A stretch of DNA of 64,000 nt from a bacterium (GTDB lineage Bacteria > Hinthialibacterota > Hinthialibacteria > Hinthialibacterales > Hinthialibacteraceae). This document shows positions 7,401 to 63,999 of this stretch, piece by piece (the stretch's first letter is position 1; every line of letters starts with the position of its first letter). Location: positions 832,001 through 896,000 of the forward strand of contig CAXXMV010000006.1 in assembly GCA_963662285.2 (NCBI GenBank), read 5' to 3'. A model generated the notes under the pieces. It did not search any database, was not told the origin of the DNA, and saw only the letters and a list, made by a program, of their open reading frames with translations. The position numbers and the translations under genes were made by a program.

Positions 7401-10394
7401 TTACGATATGAAGATTTAAATGTCCGGGCGGGAGATATCCATTACTATTGGGTTAAAGTGGCGGCCAATAGAAATGGTCTCAATGAGAGTGCATTTAGCG
7501 AAATGAGCGTTGGATATAGGTATCTTCCCCCTCCTGAAAATATACAGGCTTCCGTTGGAGTTTACGAAGGTCTTGTAATTATTACTTGGGATGAACTTCC
7601 CGAAGCGACTCATTATATGGTGTTTCGTACTGATGAGCCTAATGGAAGCCGTAAAAGCATATCCGGCTGGCAAACAGAAACCACATTCAGAGACAAAGAT
7701 ACCATCCCGGGCCATACGTATTATTACACCGTAAAAGCAGCTGGCAGTGAAACCGGCGCCGGATTAAGCAGCCATAGCCAAAGCAATGGTGGATTCAGCC
7801 GGATGCCTCCTCCAGACCCAATAATGGCTTCTGATGGAACTTACGCCGATAAAATTCGGATTTCCTGGCAGAGTGTGGAAAACGCGCAATATTTCCAAGT
7901 TTTCCGAACGGAAGATCCAGATAACAATGAATTGAACCCCTTAAACGAATTCGAGAGAATCACAAGGTTTGACGATATGACGGCGGAACCAGGAAAGATT
8001 TATTATTACTCCGTTGCCGGCGCCAGAAGTCAAAGTGGCTATGGTGATACAAATATCAGTCAATCAAATTCTGGTTTCATATCTCCAACCGTTCCACAAC
8101 GGCCGGTAGTCAGCAATTCGGAGTATGGAGACAAAATTGTAGTCAGCTGGCCTGCAATCGCTGAAGGCGTCTATTACCGCGTCTACCGCAAAGATTCTCC
8201 TAGTGGAGAATTGGCGGCAATTGGAAACTGGCAGTTAGAAACATTGTATGAAGATACAGAAGTATTGGCTGGACCGACATACTATTACGCAATCCAGGCG
8301 GGGAGCAATGAAAACGGAGATCGTCCCAGCGATATCGGCGTAGCTTATGGAGGTTCCCGCAAGATGCCGCCGCCCTCCAATTTATATGTCGCGCATGGCG
8401 CTGATCCCAATGAAATCCTGATTACGTGGCAGAAAGTGGAGAATGCGGTTTATTACCAACTGTTCCGGTCAGACTCGTTGGAGGCGGAAAAAATTCCGGT
8501 TACTGGATGGCAGCGAGGAACTATTTTCAGAGATCAAAATGTTGAACCATTGAAAATCTATTATTACTGGGTGAAGGCATCGCGTAGTTTTTCCGGATAT
8601 AAAGATACTGATCTGACCGCGCCAGAAGAAGGCTGGCTGCAACCACCCGCTCCAACCAATGTGGTTGTCTCCAATGGAGAACATCTTGATAAAGTTAATG
8701 TGCAGTGGGATTCCACAGTCACCAATGGCTTCTATAGCGTTTCCCGGTCAGAAGCGATTGATGGAGAGAAGATGCTGTTAGGAAATTGGAAACCAACCTT
8801 ATCGTTTGATGATAAAGAAGCAGTCCCTGGAAAAACCTATTATTATTGGGTGCAAACTTCCTTGCGTGAGGATGGAGATGGTCCCAGTGACTTCAGTGAT
8901 CCGGTTACAGGTTGGAAAAAGATGCCCGCTCCTGAAATTCCATCGCAACCCAACCCTGCGAATAATAGCCATGACATCGATGTTTCTGTAAATCTGGATT
9001 GGAATGATAGCCAATGGGCGGAACGTTATTATGTGCAGTTATGGGAAAGCACGGAAACAGAAGGCGCCCTCAGAATTTTCTCTCAATTACCTGATGATCC
9101 AACTTTCAATTATCTAACCGAAAGTATAGTGATAATGCCTTATGATCTTAAATATGACACAGAATATTCATGGCAGGTGACCGCAGAAAACCAGAGTGAA
9201 ATAATCAAAGGACCGGTTTGGTCATTTACGACGATATCCAAAATCGATCCAACTGCTACTAATACGCCGGTATCCGCTAATATGCCGACGGCGACCAATA
9301 CGCCAGTGGCGACCAACACGCCAACCGCAACCTATACGCCAAATAATCTACCGACGCTTTATCCAAAACCCACGAATACTCCAGCTGATATTCCCACGGT
9401 CTATCCCAGACCAACGGATACGCCGACGCCAACGTTAACTCCTACTATTGCTGATCCAACCAGCACTCCGGTTCTGCAGAATCCTACGCCAACGCCTATC
9501 TCCTCAGATGAGATCATCGAACTGCTGGTTAATTCACCAGAGCCTTATCTTGGCCATATTTCATCGGTGAGCGGCGCTGATGAAGATGGAGATGAAGATT
9601 GGTATCAATTCCGTCCCTATACGACCGGCATTCATATTATTGAAACGCATCCGGTTTCCGGCCAGGATTCAATGCACACGATCCTTTATCTATACGGTCC
9701 CAATGACCGGACCAGTTTGATCTCGTTTGACTATACAAGCGGTTATGGCGCGTTTTCCAGAATATCCCATGTTTTAGATGAAGGCCAAACCTATTACATC
9801 ATGGTGATCGAAGAGGGCCGGGATGCTACAGGACATTATGCAATTGACGTGATCACCAGTATAGATATCCCTACACCCGTTCCTGTGGAACCGTCTCCTA
9901 CACCGAATTTAACAGGCGATTGCGTGGAGGCCAGTGATTTTTATATTTCAGAGGCTACAGGATTGTTGCAGGTGAATTTAGGTTCTGTAGAAATAACGGG
10001 AGCAATGATGGCGGATGGAAATCAAACGCCATTGCATATAATCCCGTCCGATGAGCCGGAACGCCTGCATATCGAAATCCCGTGGTCGGAACCACCAATG
10101 GAGCCTGCCACGATTCTATTTTCTATTGATACCTGTGGAGGCAATGCGCCTCAACAGGTTCACTTGTACTTGCATTATGAAAAACCGATTCGGATTTCAA
10201 CTCTGAATGATTTAATGATTGTTGCTTCTACAGAGGAGTATTCTCCACCAGAATCTGGTCAAATACAGCCCATTATTCTCAAAGATCCCGCCGGGATTCG
10301 TTTGATAAAATTGGAAAACTCAAAAATCATTATCCAAAAAATCTGTTGGCAATGCCAAGCCGAAACCGGTGTCGAAATGTGGAGTAATTATTAA
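4461..10394 (+). CDS. Large secreted M12/reprolysin-like zinc metalloprotease with FN3 array, Pro/Thr linker and PPC-like domain
   Basis: Signal-like N-terminus ending [14 protein letters not shown] zinc motif and TTVMAY Met-turn; 11 tandem ~95-aa FN3-like repeats plus one variant; PTATNTP linker; start chosen at ATG 4461. Confidence 0.85.
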
Positions 10395-10781
10395 GATATA
10401 GAGGTTAACAAATCCATTGACGCTCACACACGAAGCCTCCTGTACGCAAAATCCCAGGCTGAGCGTGATGCGGTTTCTCTTAAGATTCTCGAATTAGAGG
10501 GGCAGGATTTTGATTTATTGCCGTATATAGGTCAGGATATTGTCAAGAAGGCAAAGAAAATCACAAGCGAAGAATCCAGCATGAAGGACAGGACTGAGGC
10601 CAAGGCATGGTTGCGTGAGCGGCATATCAAGCCTAAAGACGCGCTTAGATTGTACGAAGAAGCATTGAGGGCGGAATATGCCAAAAGGAATGAAGGGGAA
10701 CAGCCGTGGAAATATAAGAACGGGAATACTACGGCTTTCAAACAAAACTTATCTCGACTTAAAAAGCGACTTGGTCTTTGA
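10395..10781 (+). pseudogene. Start-less open frame, probable 3' gene fragment
   Basis: Stop-free from directly after the protease TAA to 10781 with no clear RBS or start. Confidence 0.4.
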
Positions 10782-10982
10782 CCCCAGTGAACGAACTTGG
10801 TCAAAGGCCGTAAATGGAGTGCAGATTAGGCGGATGATTATGGTGTAAAAAACGCATTCCCAAAACAGCAACCGGAACCATAAAAACCCAAAATCCACCT
10901 TCTTCCCAGGTGCAGACCAAGTTAAACCCGCAACAACCATGAACGCAATTAGTATCCCCATGAATGATAAAAAGTTTTTCAT
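10749..10982 (-). CDS. Small hypothetical membrane protein
   Basis: AGGAGG RBS before ATG 10982; two hydrophobic segments. Confidence 0.45.
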   Translation of the reverse strand: MKNFLSFMGILIAFMVVAGLTWSAPGKKVDFGFLWFRLLFWECVFYTIIIRLICTPFTAFDQVRSLGSKTKSLFKSR

Positions 10983-11011
10983 AGCAACCCCTCCTAAAAA
11001 CAATATATCGA

Positions 11012-11109
11012 GGTGACTAATAGTCGTCAAATCTTTTTTTTAGGGTGACCATCGGGTGACCAAAAAGGTGACAGAAATAGCCGTAAATAGCCGTATTTTC
11101 GTGTCACCC
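11012..11109. repeat. Clustered GGTGAC repeats and AAATAGCCGT duplication next to the tRNA-Ala 3' end (att-like)
   Basis: GGTGAC at 11012, 11044, 11055, 11067, inverted GTCACC at 11103; AAATAGCCGT x2 at 11075-11094. Confidence 0.6.
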
Positions 11110-63050: not shown

Positions 63051-63290
63051 TTGCTTCTCCTTGAATATTTCTTGGGAATTTGAACTATTTACAAAATAAC
63101 AAAAAAATTATAAAAAAATAGTAGAATTTGATTTAAAATGGATAAAATAACTTTTTTTCATTTATCTTGAAGATAATATTCCTTATAAATGCGCAATTTT
63201 TATCAAAGTAAATCTAAAAGTTATGATTTGTCGCACTTATGGTATTTTTTATTTTTTACAACTCTACAGTAAATCGAAAATATGTATAAA

Positions 63291-63322
63291 AAAATGGGGC
63301 AATCGTAACGATTGCCCCAATT
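63291..63322 (-). terminator. Hairpin terminator after LamG gene
   Basis: TGGGGCAATCGT/ACGATTGCCCCA with T tract on minus strand. Confidence 0.8.
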
Positions 63323-63345
63323 CTGTTCTCAATCAAGCAACTCGA

Positions 63346-63999
63346 TTAATACAAAGACCAGTGATTAACCTCGACGGGTCCTGCGGCGCCGTGGAATGTT
63401 GCGTCGCGTCCGTTGCCGCTGATGTCGGTTAGAACGCCTTCTTCCATCTGGCGGGAGGTATAATACATCATTAAGCCGTTATCTTTCATTTCGCTGATAT
63501 TTTCCTCTTCGGGAGGCGTTCCCAGCAATGCTTGAATCTCGGTTTCGCTTAGGGCGCGGTTCCAAATTCGGATGTTTTCCATGGCGCCTTCATACAATGC
63601 GCCGTCTTCTGATAATGCGCCGATATACAGAGGCGTTCCGCCCCAGGGGAGCATGCCGAAGGCGTCCACGTCATCCACCAGCACTCCGTTGTAGTAGAGT
63701 TTCATTAATTCCATGTCGTAAGTTCCGCATAGATGCACCCATTGTCCGGCGGGCGGCATGGGGGCGGCGGCGTCTCCGGCATCTGGTACGAACATGTGGA
63801 TGCGGTTGCCGTACTGTGATCCTCCAAACAGACTGAATTCTTCACCAGAGCCGCCGCGGCCTACGATGCCCAGATTCGTCATTTGGCGGTCATGGAAAAC
63901 GGGAGTCAAATTCACCCAGGCCTCGATTGTGATATAGTCTATTTCAAATAAATCCGGATCATCAAAAACCGCGTAATTGGTTTGGCCGTCGAACACGAT
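63346..63999 (-). CDS. LamG/concanavalin-like domain protein, 5' truncated by window edge
   Basis: ITIEAWV, WVHLCGTYD, LYYNG, IRIWNRALSETEI, DISGNG; ends VEVNHWSLY. Confidence 0.85.
   Translation of the reverse strand: MVFDGQTNYAVFDDPDLFEIDYITIEAWVNLTPVFHDRQMTNLGIVGRGGSGEEFSLFGGSQYGNRIHMFVPDAGDAAAPMPPAGQWVHLCGTYDMELMKLYYNGVLVDDVDAFGMLPWGGTPLYIGALSEDGALYEGAMENIRIWNRALSETEIQALLGTPPEEENISEMKDNGLMMYYTSRQMEEGVLTDISGNGRDATFHGAAGPVEVNHWSLY

Follow-up and report, generated by a model that had tools for sequence, protein, structure and literature searches.

Tag definition in a single window

Why should five exported proteins with unrelated bodies, all encoded within one stretch of a bacterial genome, end in nearly the same nine residues, and what might read such an ending? 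The question is raised by a stretch of 64,000 nucleotides (hereafter "the window"; assembly GCA_963662285.2, contig CAXXMV010000006.1, positions 832,001 to 896,000) from a member of the phylum Hinthialibacterota, for which an original prediction, made from the letters alone, had proposed a C-terminal motif as a candidate sorting signal. We refer to this element as the tag. Translating the open reading frames (ORFs), we recovered all five C-termini exactly as predicted, with Val at position -7 and Trp at position -4 from the stop in 5/5 proteins (Table 1). The body folds named for the five proteins likewise agree with the Pfam assignments, which are, in order along the window, Reprolysin/M12 plus fn3, no family (a 373-aa protein), Peptidase_S8, CBM_11 and Laminin_G_3. 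The N-termini of the four complete tag ORFs are plausible Sec signal peptides; the fifth ORF, encoding the LamG protein, runs from 63346 past the window end and comprises 685 aa in the full genome.

Among homologues of these proteins, the tag is kept by close relatives. The 373-aa protein has 4 database homologues (47-61% identical), and 4/4 carry it. In the S8 subtilase the tag begins 2-3 residues past the last helix of the catalytic domain (S8 family), and it is present in 26 of the 30 closest homologues, with one more ending in the tag plus E, against 0/90 of those ranked after them, several of which possess transmembrane (TM)-plus-basic anchors at their ends. One of the S8 homologues, 52% identical, is labelled Candidatus Hinthialibacter antarcticus by its source.

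Genome-wide statistics and consensus

Across the window's genome (7.29 Mb in 8 contigs, 44% GC), the tag is a genuine, position-specific C-terminal feature, far beyond chance. Crude gene calling by codon-usage log-odds with greedy non-overlap yielded 5458 genes, and the regular expression V..W..[FYQ]$, which the original prediction had put forward for a proteome check, matched 92 of these against 1 of 15233 rejected non-gene ORFs. Trp occupies position -4 in 4.6% of the 5458 genes, as compared with 1.5% overall. Iterating a position matrix from the seed tags, with cut-offs of 10 bits for counting tags and 12 bits for estimating the background, we obtained the consensus P-T-x-[VI]-x-[DNE]-W-[SME]-[LIM]-[YFH]-COOH, which reaches at least 10 bits at 153/5458 C-termini. 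At 12 bits the matrix finds only 8 internal matches in 2,048,493 windows of sequence, so that about 0.02 C-terminal matches would be expected by chance. Within the 149 sequences at or above 12 bits, position -9 is T (100) or V (26), -7 is V (115) or I (30), -4 is W (142), -2 is L (85), I (32) or M (12), with L, I, M or V together in 138, and -1 is Y (91), F (27) or H (23); the information content is approximately zero upstream of position -10. In 32 further proteins a single residue follows the tag (13 E, 5 D, 3 each of N, Q, K and R, 1 Y, 1 H), and in 2 more there are two, while a scan of the 5458 proteins revealed none with the tag 3-6 residues from the C-terminus. The total is thus 153 + 34 = 187/5458 carriers, or about 3% of the proteome.

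The terminal aromatic residue and the hydrophobic positions near the end recall the beta-signal of the beta-barrel assembly machinery (BAM), and a mimic of that signal, read by BamA/BamD or an Omp85 relative, could bring soluble cargo to the external face of the outer membrane. We consider this very improbable, as the residues at -3 (S/E/M) and -5 (D/N/E) are mostly polar, such that the residues do not alternate as they would in a membrane strand, the carrier bodies are soluble rather than beta-barrels, and the putative outer-membrane proteins (OMPs) of this genome end differently, in Y-x-F-type sequences (...LTYRF, ...LMYKF, ...GYSF). The misfit to the beta-signal that had been predicted therefore stands.

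Export signals and bodies of the carriers

The carriers have Sec-type rather than Tat-type leaders, few of them look like lipoproteins, and their bodies are unrelated. Under a deliberately lax signal-peptide rule that 41% of other proteins satisfy, 142/153 tag proteins were positive against 2190/5305 others (odds ratio (OR) 18, p 1.6e-40), several of the 11 that fail visibly possess signal peptides, and in the wider tag set the rule is satisfied by 174/187. The enrichment among signal-peptide proteins that had been suggested as a check is thus strongly positive. Tat-like leaders were found in 0/153 tag proteins versus 38/2190 other signal-rule proteins, and lipobox-like motifs in 5/153 versus 178/2190. 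Two sulfatases encoded in the window have Tat-type leaders and lack the tag, consistent with its absence from Tat substrates.

With the tag removed, the bodies of the 153 proteins fall into 79 single-linkage BLAST clusters (60 of these are singletons, and the largest has 47 members), in keeping with the prediction of a tag on unrelated folds. The last 150 residues, again without the tag, scatter over 104 clusters (78 singletons), which argues against any shared C-terminal domain, and the 30 residues preceding the tag are like the rest of the protein in composition rather than linker-like. For domain content we drew a Pfam sample of 40 proteins, one per cluster plus six from the large cluster, at random from 79 candidates, proteins of more than 1300 aa and those of the window being left out. 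No family was assigned to 25/40 at E 1e-4, and the other 15 contained CBM9 (3), FG-GAP (2), beta-helix (2), GDSL lipase, WD40, fn3, S8 plus PA, S15 peptidase, CotH plus LTD, a GH123 N-domain and PrcB_C.

Two individual proteins of this genome deserve separate mention. A tag carrier of 1121 aa (C1:259669-263034) possesses about 15 WD40 repeats and would be an exported propeller, and an exported beta-helix protein (C8:28298-30739) is unusual in that it ends, at the very C-terminus, with a PDZ domain.

Taxonomic distribution

The tag occurs across Hinthialibacterota (OLB16) and in a second phylum, Sumerlaeota. Using a degenerate DNA pattern for T-x-[VI]-x-x-W-x-Φ-[YFH]-stop on 35 Hinthialibacterota genomes, we counted 82 matches in the window's genome against 4 for the reversed control, and 0-6 control matches over the survey as a whole. 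Grouping the genomes by family (f1, f2, f3, f6), matches per genome ranged over 20-82 in f1, 13-41 in f3, 7-19 in f2 and 12-27 in one genus of f6, with 4-8 in genomes G027-G030 and 1 in genome G001. The last belongs to the same class as the window's genome and has 65% GC versus 44%. Among the 312 genes of a 400-kb sample (C1:1-400000), we saw a single clear tag, SEVASWRLY, beside two weak cases. As the tag is thus rare in G001 and not absent, we dropped this genome as a tag-less negative for phylogenetic profiling. A CocE/NonD tag protein has homologues without the tag in G028 and G036, but these are only 28-36% identical and hence uninformative.

A stricter pattern run over one genome per prokaryotic species returned 69 loci. 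Repeated matches came from metagenome-assembled genomes (MAGs), namely Hinthialibacteria OLB16 MAGs, "Omnitrophota" MAGs including SURF_12, which belongs to Hinthialibacterota (OLB16) according to the available text of PMC9324843, and unlabelled MAGs; seven loci came from six Candidatus Sumerlaeota MAGs, and about 25 were single matches spread over other taxa, as by chance. The three Sumerlaeota genomes that we examined gave 21, 7 and 7 pattern matches against 1, 0 and 2 for the control. In many Sumerlaeota genomes an extra E or Q follows the tag beside pilin-like genes (e.g., ...DWALFE), which places Trp at -5.

We found no description of the tag in Hinthialibacterota or Sumerlaeota in the literature. 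The main text of PMC9324843 (Hinthialibacterota) has 0 occurrences of "secretion" and "C-terminal", and that of PMC8092238 (Sumerlaeota) has 0 occurrences of "pilin" and "type II secretion".

Pairing of tag genes with GspG-like pseudopilin genes

The clearest genomic associate of the tag is a family of pilin-like genes, and the pairing of the two is non-random and partly conserved in both phyla. Screening the families found among the ±3 neighbours of tag genes, we saw prepilin-type proteins at the top (p 1e-6); an Hsp20 enrichment (5/5) was rejected as it reflects merely two local clusters. The window's genome has 126 genes with the prepilin cleavage/methylation motif (N_methyl), and 114 of the encoded proteins align as one family with the GspG/PulG pattern (consensus GFTLIELLIVVAIIGILAAIAVPNFLNAQIRAK...YRLDNN.YP...LTTP.SY.SS.P.DPF...GPD...SNGL.S.GDI.). 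Their assignment to GspG draws on weak profile matches to the solved GspG structures 2KEP and 3G20 and on a Pfam T2SSG match to one member, and the nearest ESM Atlas clusters combine N_methyl with T2SSG and are commonest in Sumerlaeota. The family is large throughout Hinthialibacterota, with at least about 98 matches per genome where our matching saturated and 40 in G001, and the three Sumerlaeota genomes have 47-65.

An immediate GspG-like neighbour was found for 24/153 tag genes, whereas 2000 random placements gave 7.0 on average and 17 at most. A GspG-like gene lies downstream on the same strand within 300 bp of 13/153 tag genes versus 23/2086 other signal-peptide genes (OR 8.3, p 2.5e-7), and on either side of 21/187 versus 53/2054 (OR 4.8, p 2.2e-7). 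In the window itself, 49 bp separate the LamG tag gene from a GspG-like pilin gene that lies upstream in the same orientation, just past the window end, and the M12 tag gene is followed by the pilin-like gene at 11472..12017 with a tRNA-Ala gene between them, so that this second pair is not an operon. One operon, with genes for a 440-aa tag protein, a pilin and a CbiX-like protein in that order, is kept in 7/7 genomes with that pilin orthologue, across f1, f2 and f3.

In Sumerlaeota we inspected two sets of loci. Eight loci were chosen because tag and pilin matches lay close together, and hence not at random; of the nine tag ORFs that they hold, all with signal peptides, eight lie 5-90 bp from a GspG-like ORF, with the pilin downstream in six pairs and upstream in two. 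As a share of all pattern matches, such pairs make up 6/21 in G035, 2/7 in G036 and 0/7 in G037, or 8/28 for G035 and G036 together. The second set came from a sample of 30 Sumerlaeota genomes, each contributing the locus that best matched one particular Sumerlaeota pilin, and here 16 of 29 pilin-like ORFs adjoin an ORF that ends in the tag, either bare or extended by 1-3 residues; this ORF is upstream of the pilin-like ORF in 10 cases and downstream in 6. The strict matrix called 5 of the 16, and the other 11 were read by eye (...DWALFE, ...NWHLYE, ...TWEMYQ). The pairs represent at least two orthologous types, which differ in the length of the partner (about 485 or about 300 aa).

Longer, apparently fused pilin-like forms were set aside, as none of the 26 such proteins carries the tag and most appear to be mis-called starts or tandem genes. 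At C8:1515351-1518944 of the window's genome, a signal-peptide Tricorn-type protease (PD40 repeats, Tricorn_C1, PDZ_Tricorn, Peptidase_S41) is encoded directly upstream of a CBM9 tag gene and a pilin-like gene.

The strict C-terminal position of the tag and its aromatic or hydrophobic last residue would also suit a ligand of periplasmic PDZ domains, such as those of a CtpA-type or Tricorn-type S41 peptidase or an HtrA-family protease, in which case the tag might be a clipped processing site, a degron or a stress signal for unexported cargo. The C-termini of OMPs act as such a PDZ signal for DegS. Candidate readers are at hand, since the genome encodes a CtpA-like S41 peptidase, four HtrA-like proteins, RseP and a Tricorn-type S41 protease, the gene for the last lying directly upstream of one tag-gene/pilin-gene pair. 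We nonetheless judge this explanation distinctly unlikely. The extra residues, mostly acidic or amide (1-2 in 34/187 carriers here, 1-3 in Sumerlaeota), shift the register of the carboxylate; conservation reaches Thr at -9, whereas the usual PDZ ligand is shorter than nine residues; and PDZ families are near-universal in bacteria while repeated tag matches occur in only two phyla.

Type II secretion clusters

The window's genome has three clusters resembling a type II secretion system (T2SS), namely cluster A in the window (Table 1) and clusters B and C elsewhere. Clusters B and C each have one canonical short GspG. Cluster A has no GspG gene, and between its GspF and GspH genes there is no ORF of at least 50 aa with a prepilin motif. 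Orthologues of the cluster-A secretin were found in f1, f2, f3 and f6, in the last case inside giant ORFs, and were not found in G001, G027 or G029; Sumerlaeota gave only weak matches to the secretin C-domain. We considered this distribution too confounded to use as a correlate of the tag. The giant f6 frames (G028 C6:~177900-192500, and likewise in G030-G034) span 1636-3966 aa, with many repeated N-domain matches around the secretin. A 642-aa ORF that follows the secretin gene in cluster A was weighed as a reader of the tag and set aside, because it was found only in f1 and f3 and tag-bearing f2, f6 and Sumerlaeota are without it.

A pilin-docking strand as the tentative reading

We tentatively favour, at somewhat less than an even chance, a reading in which the tag acts as a pilin-docking strand and so links proteins exported by Sec, as cargo, to a T2SS or a type IV filament machine. 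Under this reading, a carrier would be exported by Sec and fold in the periplasm, where its last nine or so residues (T-x-V-x-D-W-S-L-Y, sometimes followed by E, Q, D or N) would bind a pilin-fold protein by beta-strand augmentation. Such docking would couple otherwise unrelated glycan-binding proteins, proteases and proteins of no assigned function to the machine, either for export through the secretin or for display on a filament, and the likeliest partners would be the expanded GspG-like pseudopilins or the tip complex of the GspG-less cluster A. We infer both the physical binding to a pilin-fold acceptor, and which acceptor that would be, and the outcome, which may be release, surface display or both. 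The extra residue tolerated after the tag (34/187, and common in Sumerlaeota) mildly favours strand augmentation over a reader with a fixed carboxylate register.

The precedent for such a strand is the tail of the PilC/PilY1 adhesins. According to the available text of two 2026 reports (PMC12918778, a preprint; PMC13711793), these adhesins have a short Trp-containing C-terminal tail that inserts as a beta-strand into the sheet of a PilK/PilX (GspK-family) minor pilin at the pilus tip, and the strand is required both for pilus assembly and for retention of the adhesin on the tip. The tag resembles this tail in being about 10 residues long at the extreme C-terminus without a TM segment, in its Trp (142/149 at -4) followed by a conserved hydrophobic residue (138/149 at -2), and in its carriers, which are Sec-exported proteins other than pilins, encoded next to pilin genes and variable in the rest of their sequence. 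The usual tag has Trp at -4, and the tag plus one residue brings it to -5, as in PilC/PilY1. The original prediction had known of no named family for the tag; this holds for the named families that we searched (see below), with the amendment that the PilC/PilY1 tail is a relative, the closest that we found.

The differences are equally plain. The PilC/PilY1 tail belongs to one family of beta-propeller adhesins, with one or two per pilus system, whereas the tag is found on some 187 unrelated proteins in a genome, and the neighbours of tag genes are GspG-like rather than PilVWX-like. The PilC/PilY1 acceptor is a GspK-family minor pilin without its own last strand, while the T2SS GspK supplies the corresponding strand in cis (PMC12918778, available text). 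The three GspK homologues of the window's genome align through their C-terminal segments (EIRYWKVLR / EIRYRKDM... / QIRLFEPI..., the first ending the cluster-A protein as ...PPEIRYWKVLR). The hydrophobic/Trp/hydrophobic spacing of that cluster-A end, I-R-Y-W-K-V-L-R, equals that of the tag, V-x-D-W-S-L-Y, a likeness to the cis strand of the T2SS GspK, which lies within the minor pilin itself. In comparison with solved GspK structures, only the middle of XcpX was aligned to the cluster-A GspK, the C-terminal end falling outside the alignment.

Several observations weigh against a pilin-docking strand. Since all three GspK proteins have C-terminal segments of their own, none resembles a PilK that needs a strand in trans, and known T2SS payloads do not use strand complementation, per the authors of PMC12918778 in its available text. 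The T4P_PilY1 propeller was detected in 0/40 sampled carriers and gave 0 matches in the genome, a genome search that was silent in control genomes too. A pilin-like neighbour is found for only about 11% of tag genes; in a second pilin orthologue group the tag ORF is upstream in only 5/13 loci; and in G003, from another family, 1/16 pattern matches has a pilin-like gene just downstream, no more than chance given at least 151 pilin-like genes in that genome. The paired pilins form no clade (3 nearest-paralogue matches versus 4.5 by chance in a tree of the 114 paralogues), genome size alone explains the correlation between the numbers of tags and of pilin-like genes (density rho 0.04 in f1), and the pilin-like family of G001 is large (40 matches) though the tag there is rare (1-3/312 genes). 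No acceptor protein emerged. A complex prediction for a GspG-like soluble domain with the last 36 residues of the neighbouring tag protein gave 0.01 (mark 0.32) and speaks neither for nor against.

With about 89% of tag genes lacking a pilin-like neighbour, the tag might instead serve surface retention or docking in the manner of a minimal dockerin, whatever the export route, its reader being a receptor other than a pilin, such as an outer-membrane protein, a scaffold of the surface layer or a cell-surface glycan. Many carriers are glycan-binding or degradative (CBM9, CBM_11, LamG, beta-helix, S8) and would benefit from retention at the cell, and distant homologues of the S8 protease have TM-plus-basic CTERM anchors or other C-terminal domains where the tag would be, which suggests that this position serves anchoring elsewhere. 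No receptor candidate emerged, though no systematic search for a repeated cohesin-like scaffold was made, and a non-pilin receptor does not explain why, in two phyla, tag genes recur beside GspG-like genes, some of the pairs being conserved. We regard it as unlikely, and as the foremost of the alternatives to the pilin-docking strand. As to the outer-membrane export or surface anchoring that had been predicted for the tag, either stands as inference only, since no reader protein emerged and the link to the gsp cluster is circumstantial.

Comparison with other C-terminal signals

Known families of C-terminal signals account poorly for the tag, much as had been predicted. Searching NCBIfam with 43 tag proteins, we found no model at cut-off on the tag; one chance-level match to NF047334 (15.7 bits, cut-off 50) touches residues 300-317 of a 323-aa protein. 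The Pfam PEP-CTERM model had 0 matches in the genome, though controls were silent too, and among the 80 signal-peptide proteins with a C-terminal TM segment and basic end, regular expressions found 0 PEP-like and 0 LPxTG motifs. The tag ends 0-2 residues before the stop without a TM helix, and in this it fits none of PEP-CTERM, GlyGly-CTERM and LPXTG. It does share with GlyGly-CTERM/rhombosortase and MYXO-CTERM/myxosortase (PMC6219818, PMC11980579) its presence on many unrelated exported proteins, whereas those signals, as the available text of the two papers describes them, consist of a motif followed by a TM helix and then a cluster of basic residues, and an intramembrane protease cleaves them.

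The C-terminal domain (CTD) of the type IX secretion system (T9SS) is, like the tag, a C-terminal signal on unrelated degradative or binding proteins exported by Sec. The T9SS CTD is folded (the Pfam model has 75 positions), however, while conservation of the tag stops within 10 residues; the Por_Secre_tail model gave one sub-threshold match genome-wide and 0/40 in the sampled tag proteins, and with no shared C-terminal domain among the carriers the predicted misfit to the T9SS is confirmed. A type I secretion signal is C-terminal as well, but its substrates have no N-terminal signal peptide and leave in one step, whereas 174/187 tag carriers meet the lax signal-peptide rule. The T2SS chaperones of Acinetobacter (PMC4713064) offer a parallel in gene arrangement, in that the genes for a substrate and for its membrane-anchored periplasmic helper are neighbours; the helpers are unlike pilins, however, and the available text of that paper does not describe a common C-terminal tag on the substrates.

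Features of the window

The coordinates of the tags and of the other features discussed are collected in Table 1. Between two of the tag genes, a C-5 cytosine DNA methylase gene is followed by one for an HNH endonuclease, and the two are probably a restriction-modification pair.

Table 1. Features of the 64,000-nucleotide window, in window coordinates
Feature	Position	Strand	Description
Tag TGVEMWSNY	10365..10391	+	C-terminus of 2002-aa M12/fn3 protein, ORF 4386-10394, stop 10392-10394
tRNA-Ala(GGC)	11152-11224	-	between M12 tag gene and pilin-like gene
GspG/PulG-like prepilin paralogue (1 of 126)	11472..12017	+	N_methyl motif
Tag TSVPGWEMF	16842..16868	+	C-terminus of 373-aa protein, ORF 15750-16871, stop 16869-16871
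Tag TSVSGWELQ	21898..21924	-	C-terminus of S8 subtilase, ORF 21895-24168, stop 21895-21897
DNA methylase and HNH endonuclease	26680-28242	-	
Tag VPVAEWQLF	28499..28525	-	C-terminus of CBM_11-bearing protein, ORF 28496-30541, stop 28496-28498
Two sulfatases	35956-38962	-	
642-aa ORF after secretin	43343..45271	-	no Pfam family; fast-evolving (29-47% identity within f1)
T2SS cluster A	45287..58232	-	GspE, F, H, I, J, K, PilM/N-like, PilO/M-like, 266-aa GspC/PilP-like, secretin GspD
Tag VEVNHWSLY	63349..63375	-	C-terminus of LamG protein, stop 63346-63348

Implications

A further-reaching version of the pilin-docking strand, which we hold to be doubtful, would make the tag a linear, transferable loading signal for a T2SS-type machine, with a pilin-fold acceptor exporting the cargo or carrying it on a filament and the GspG-like paralogues serving as cargo adaptors. 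How the T2SS recognizes folded substrates is a long-standing open question, and to our knowledge no linear signal is known, recognition having stayed undefined for decades; if this version were true, the tag would be the first simple sequence signal for a T2SS. Were the reader of the tag a pilin-fold protein, substrate recognition would become directly testable with a nine-residue peptide, the tag would be usable as a portable label for secretion or display, and a function could be proposed for large families of pseudopilin paralogues. Large, unexplained pseudopilin-like families are described elsewhere, with 79 COG2165 genes in Fimbriimonas (PMC4072686, available text) and 68 DUF1559 paralogues in Planctopirus (PMC10632474, available text), and the adaptor role, if true, may extend to the COG2165 proteins of Armatimonadetes and the DUF1559 proteins of Planctomycetes.

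If the mechanism holds, a terminal strand of the PilY1 type would be generalised to a whole exoproteome, and if the reader is not of the pilin fold, the tag would represent a new kind of sorting signal. Whatever its reader, the tag marks, from sequence alone, the likely exoproteome of two uncultivated phyla of polymer degraders.

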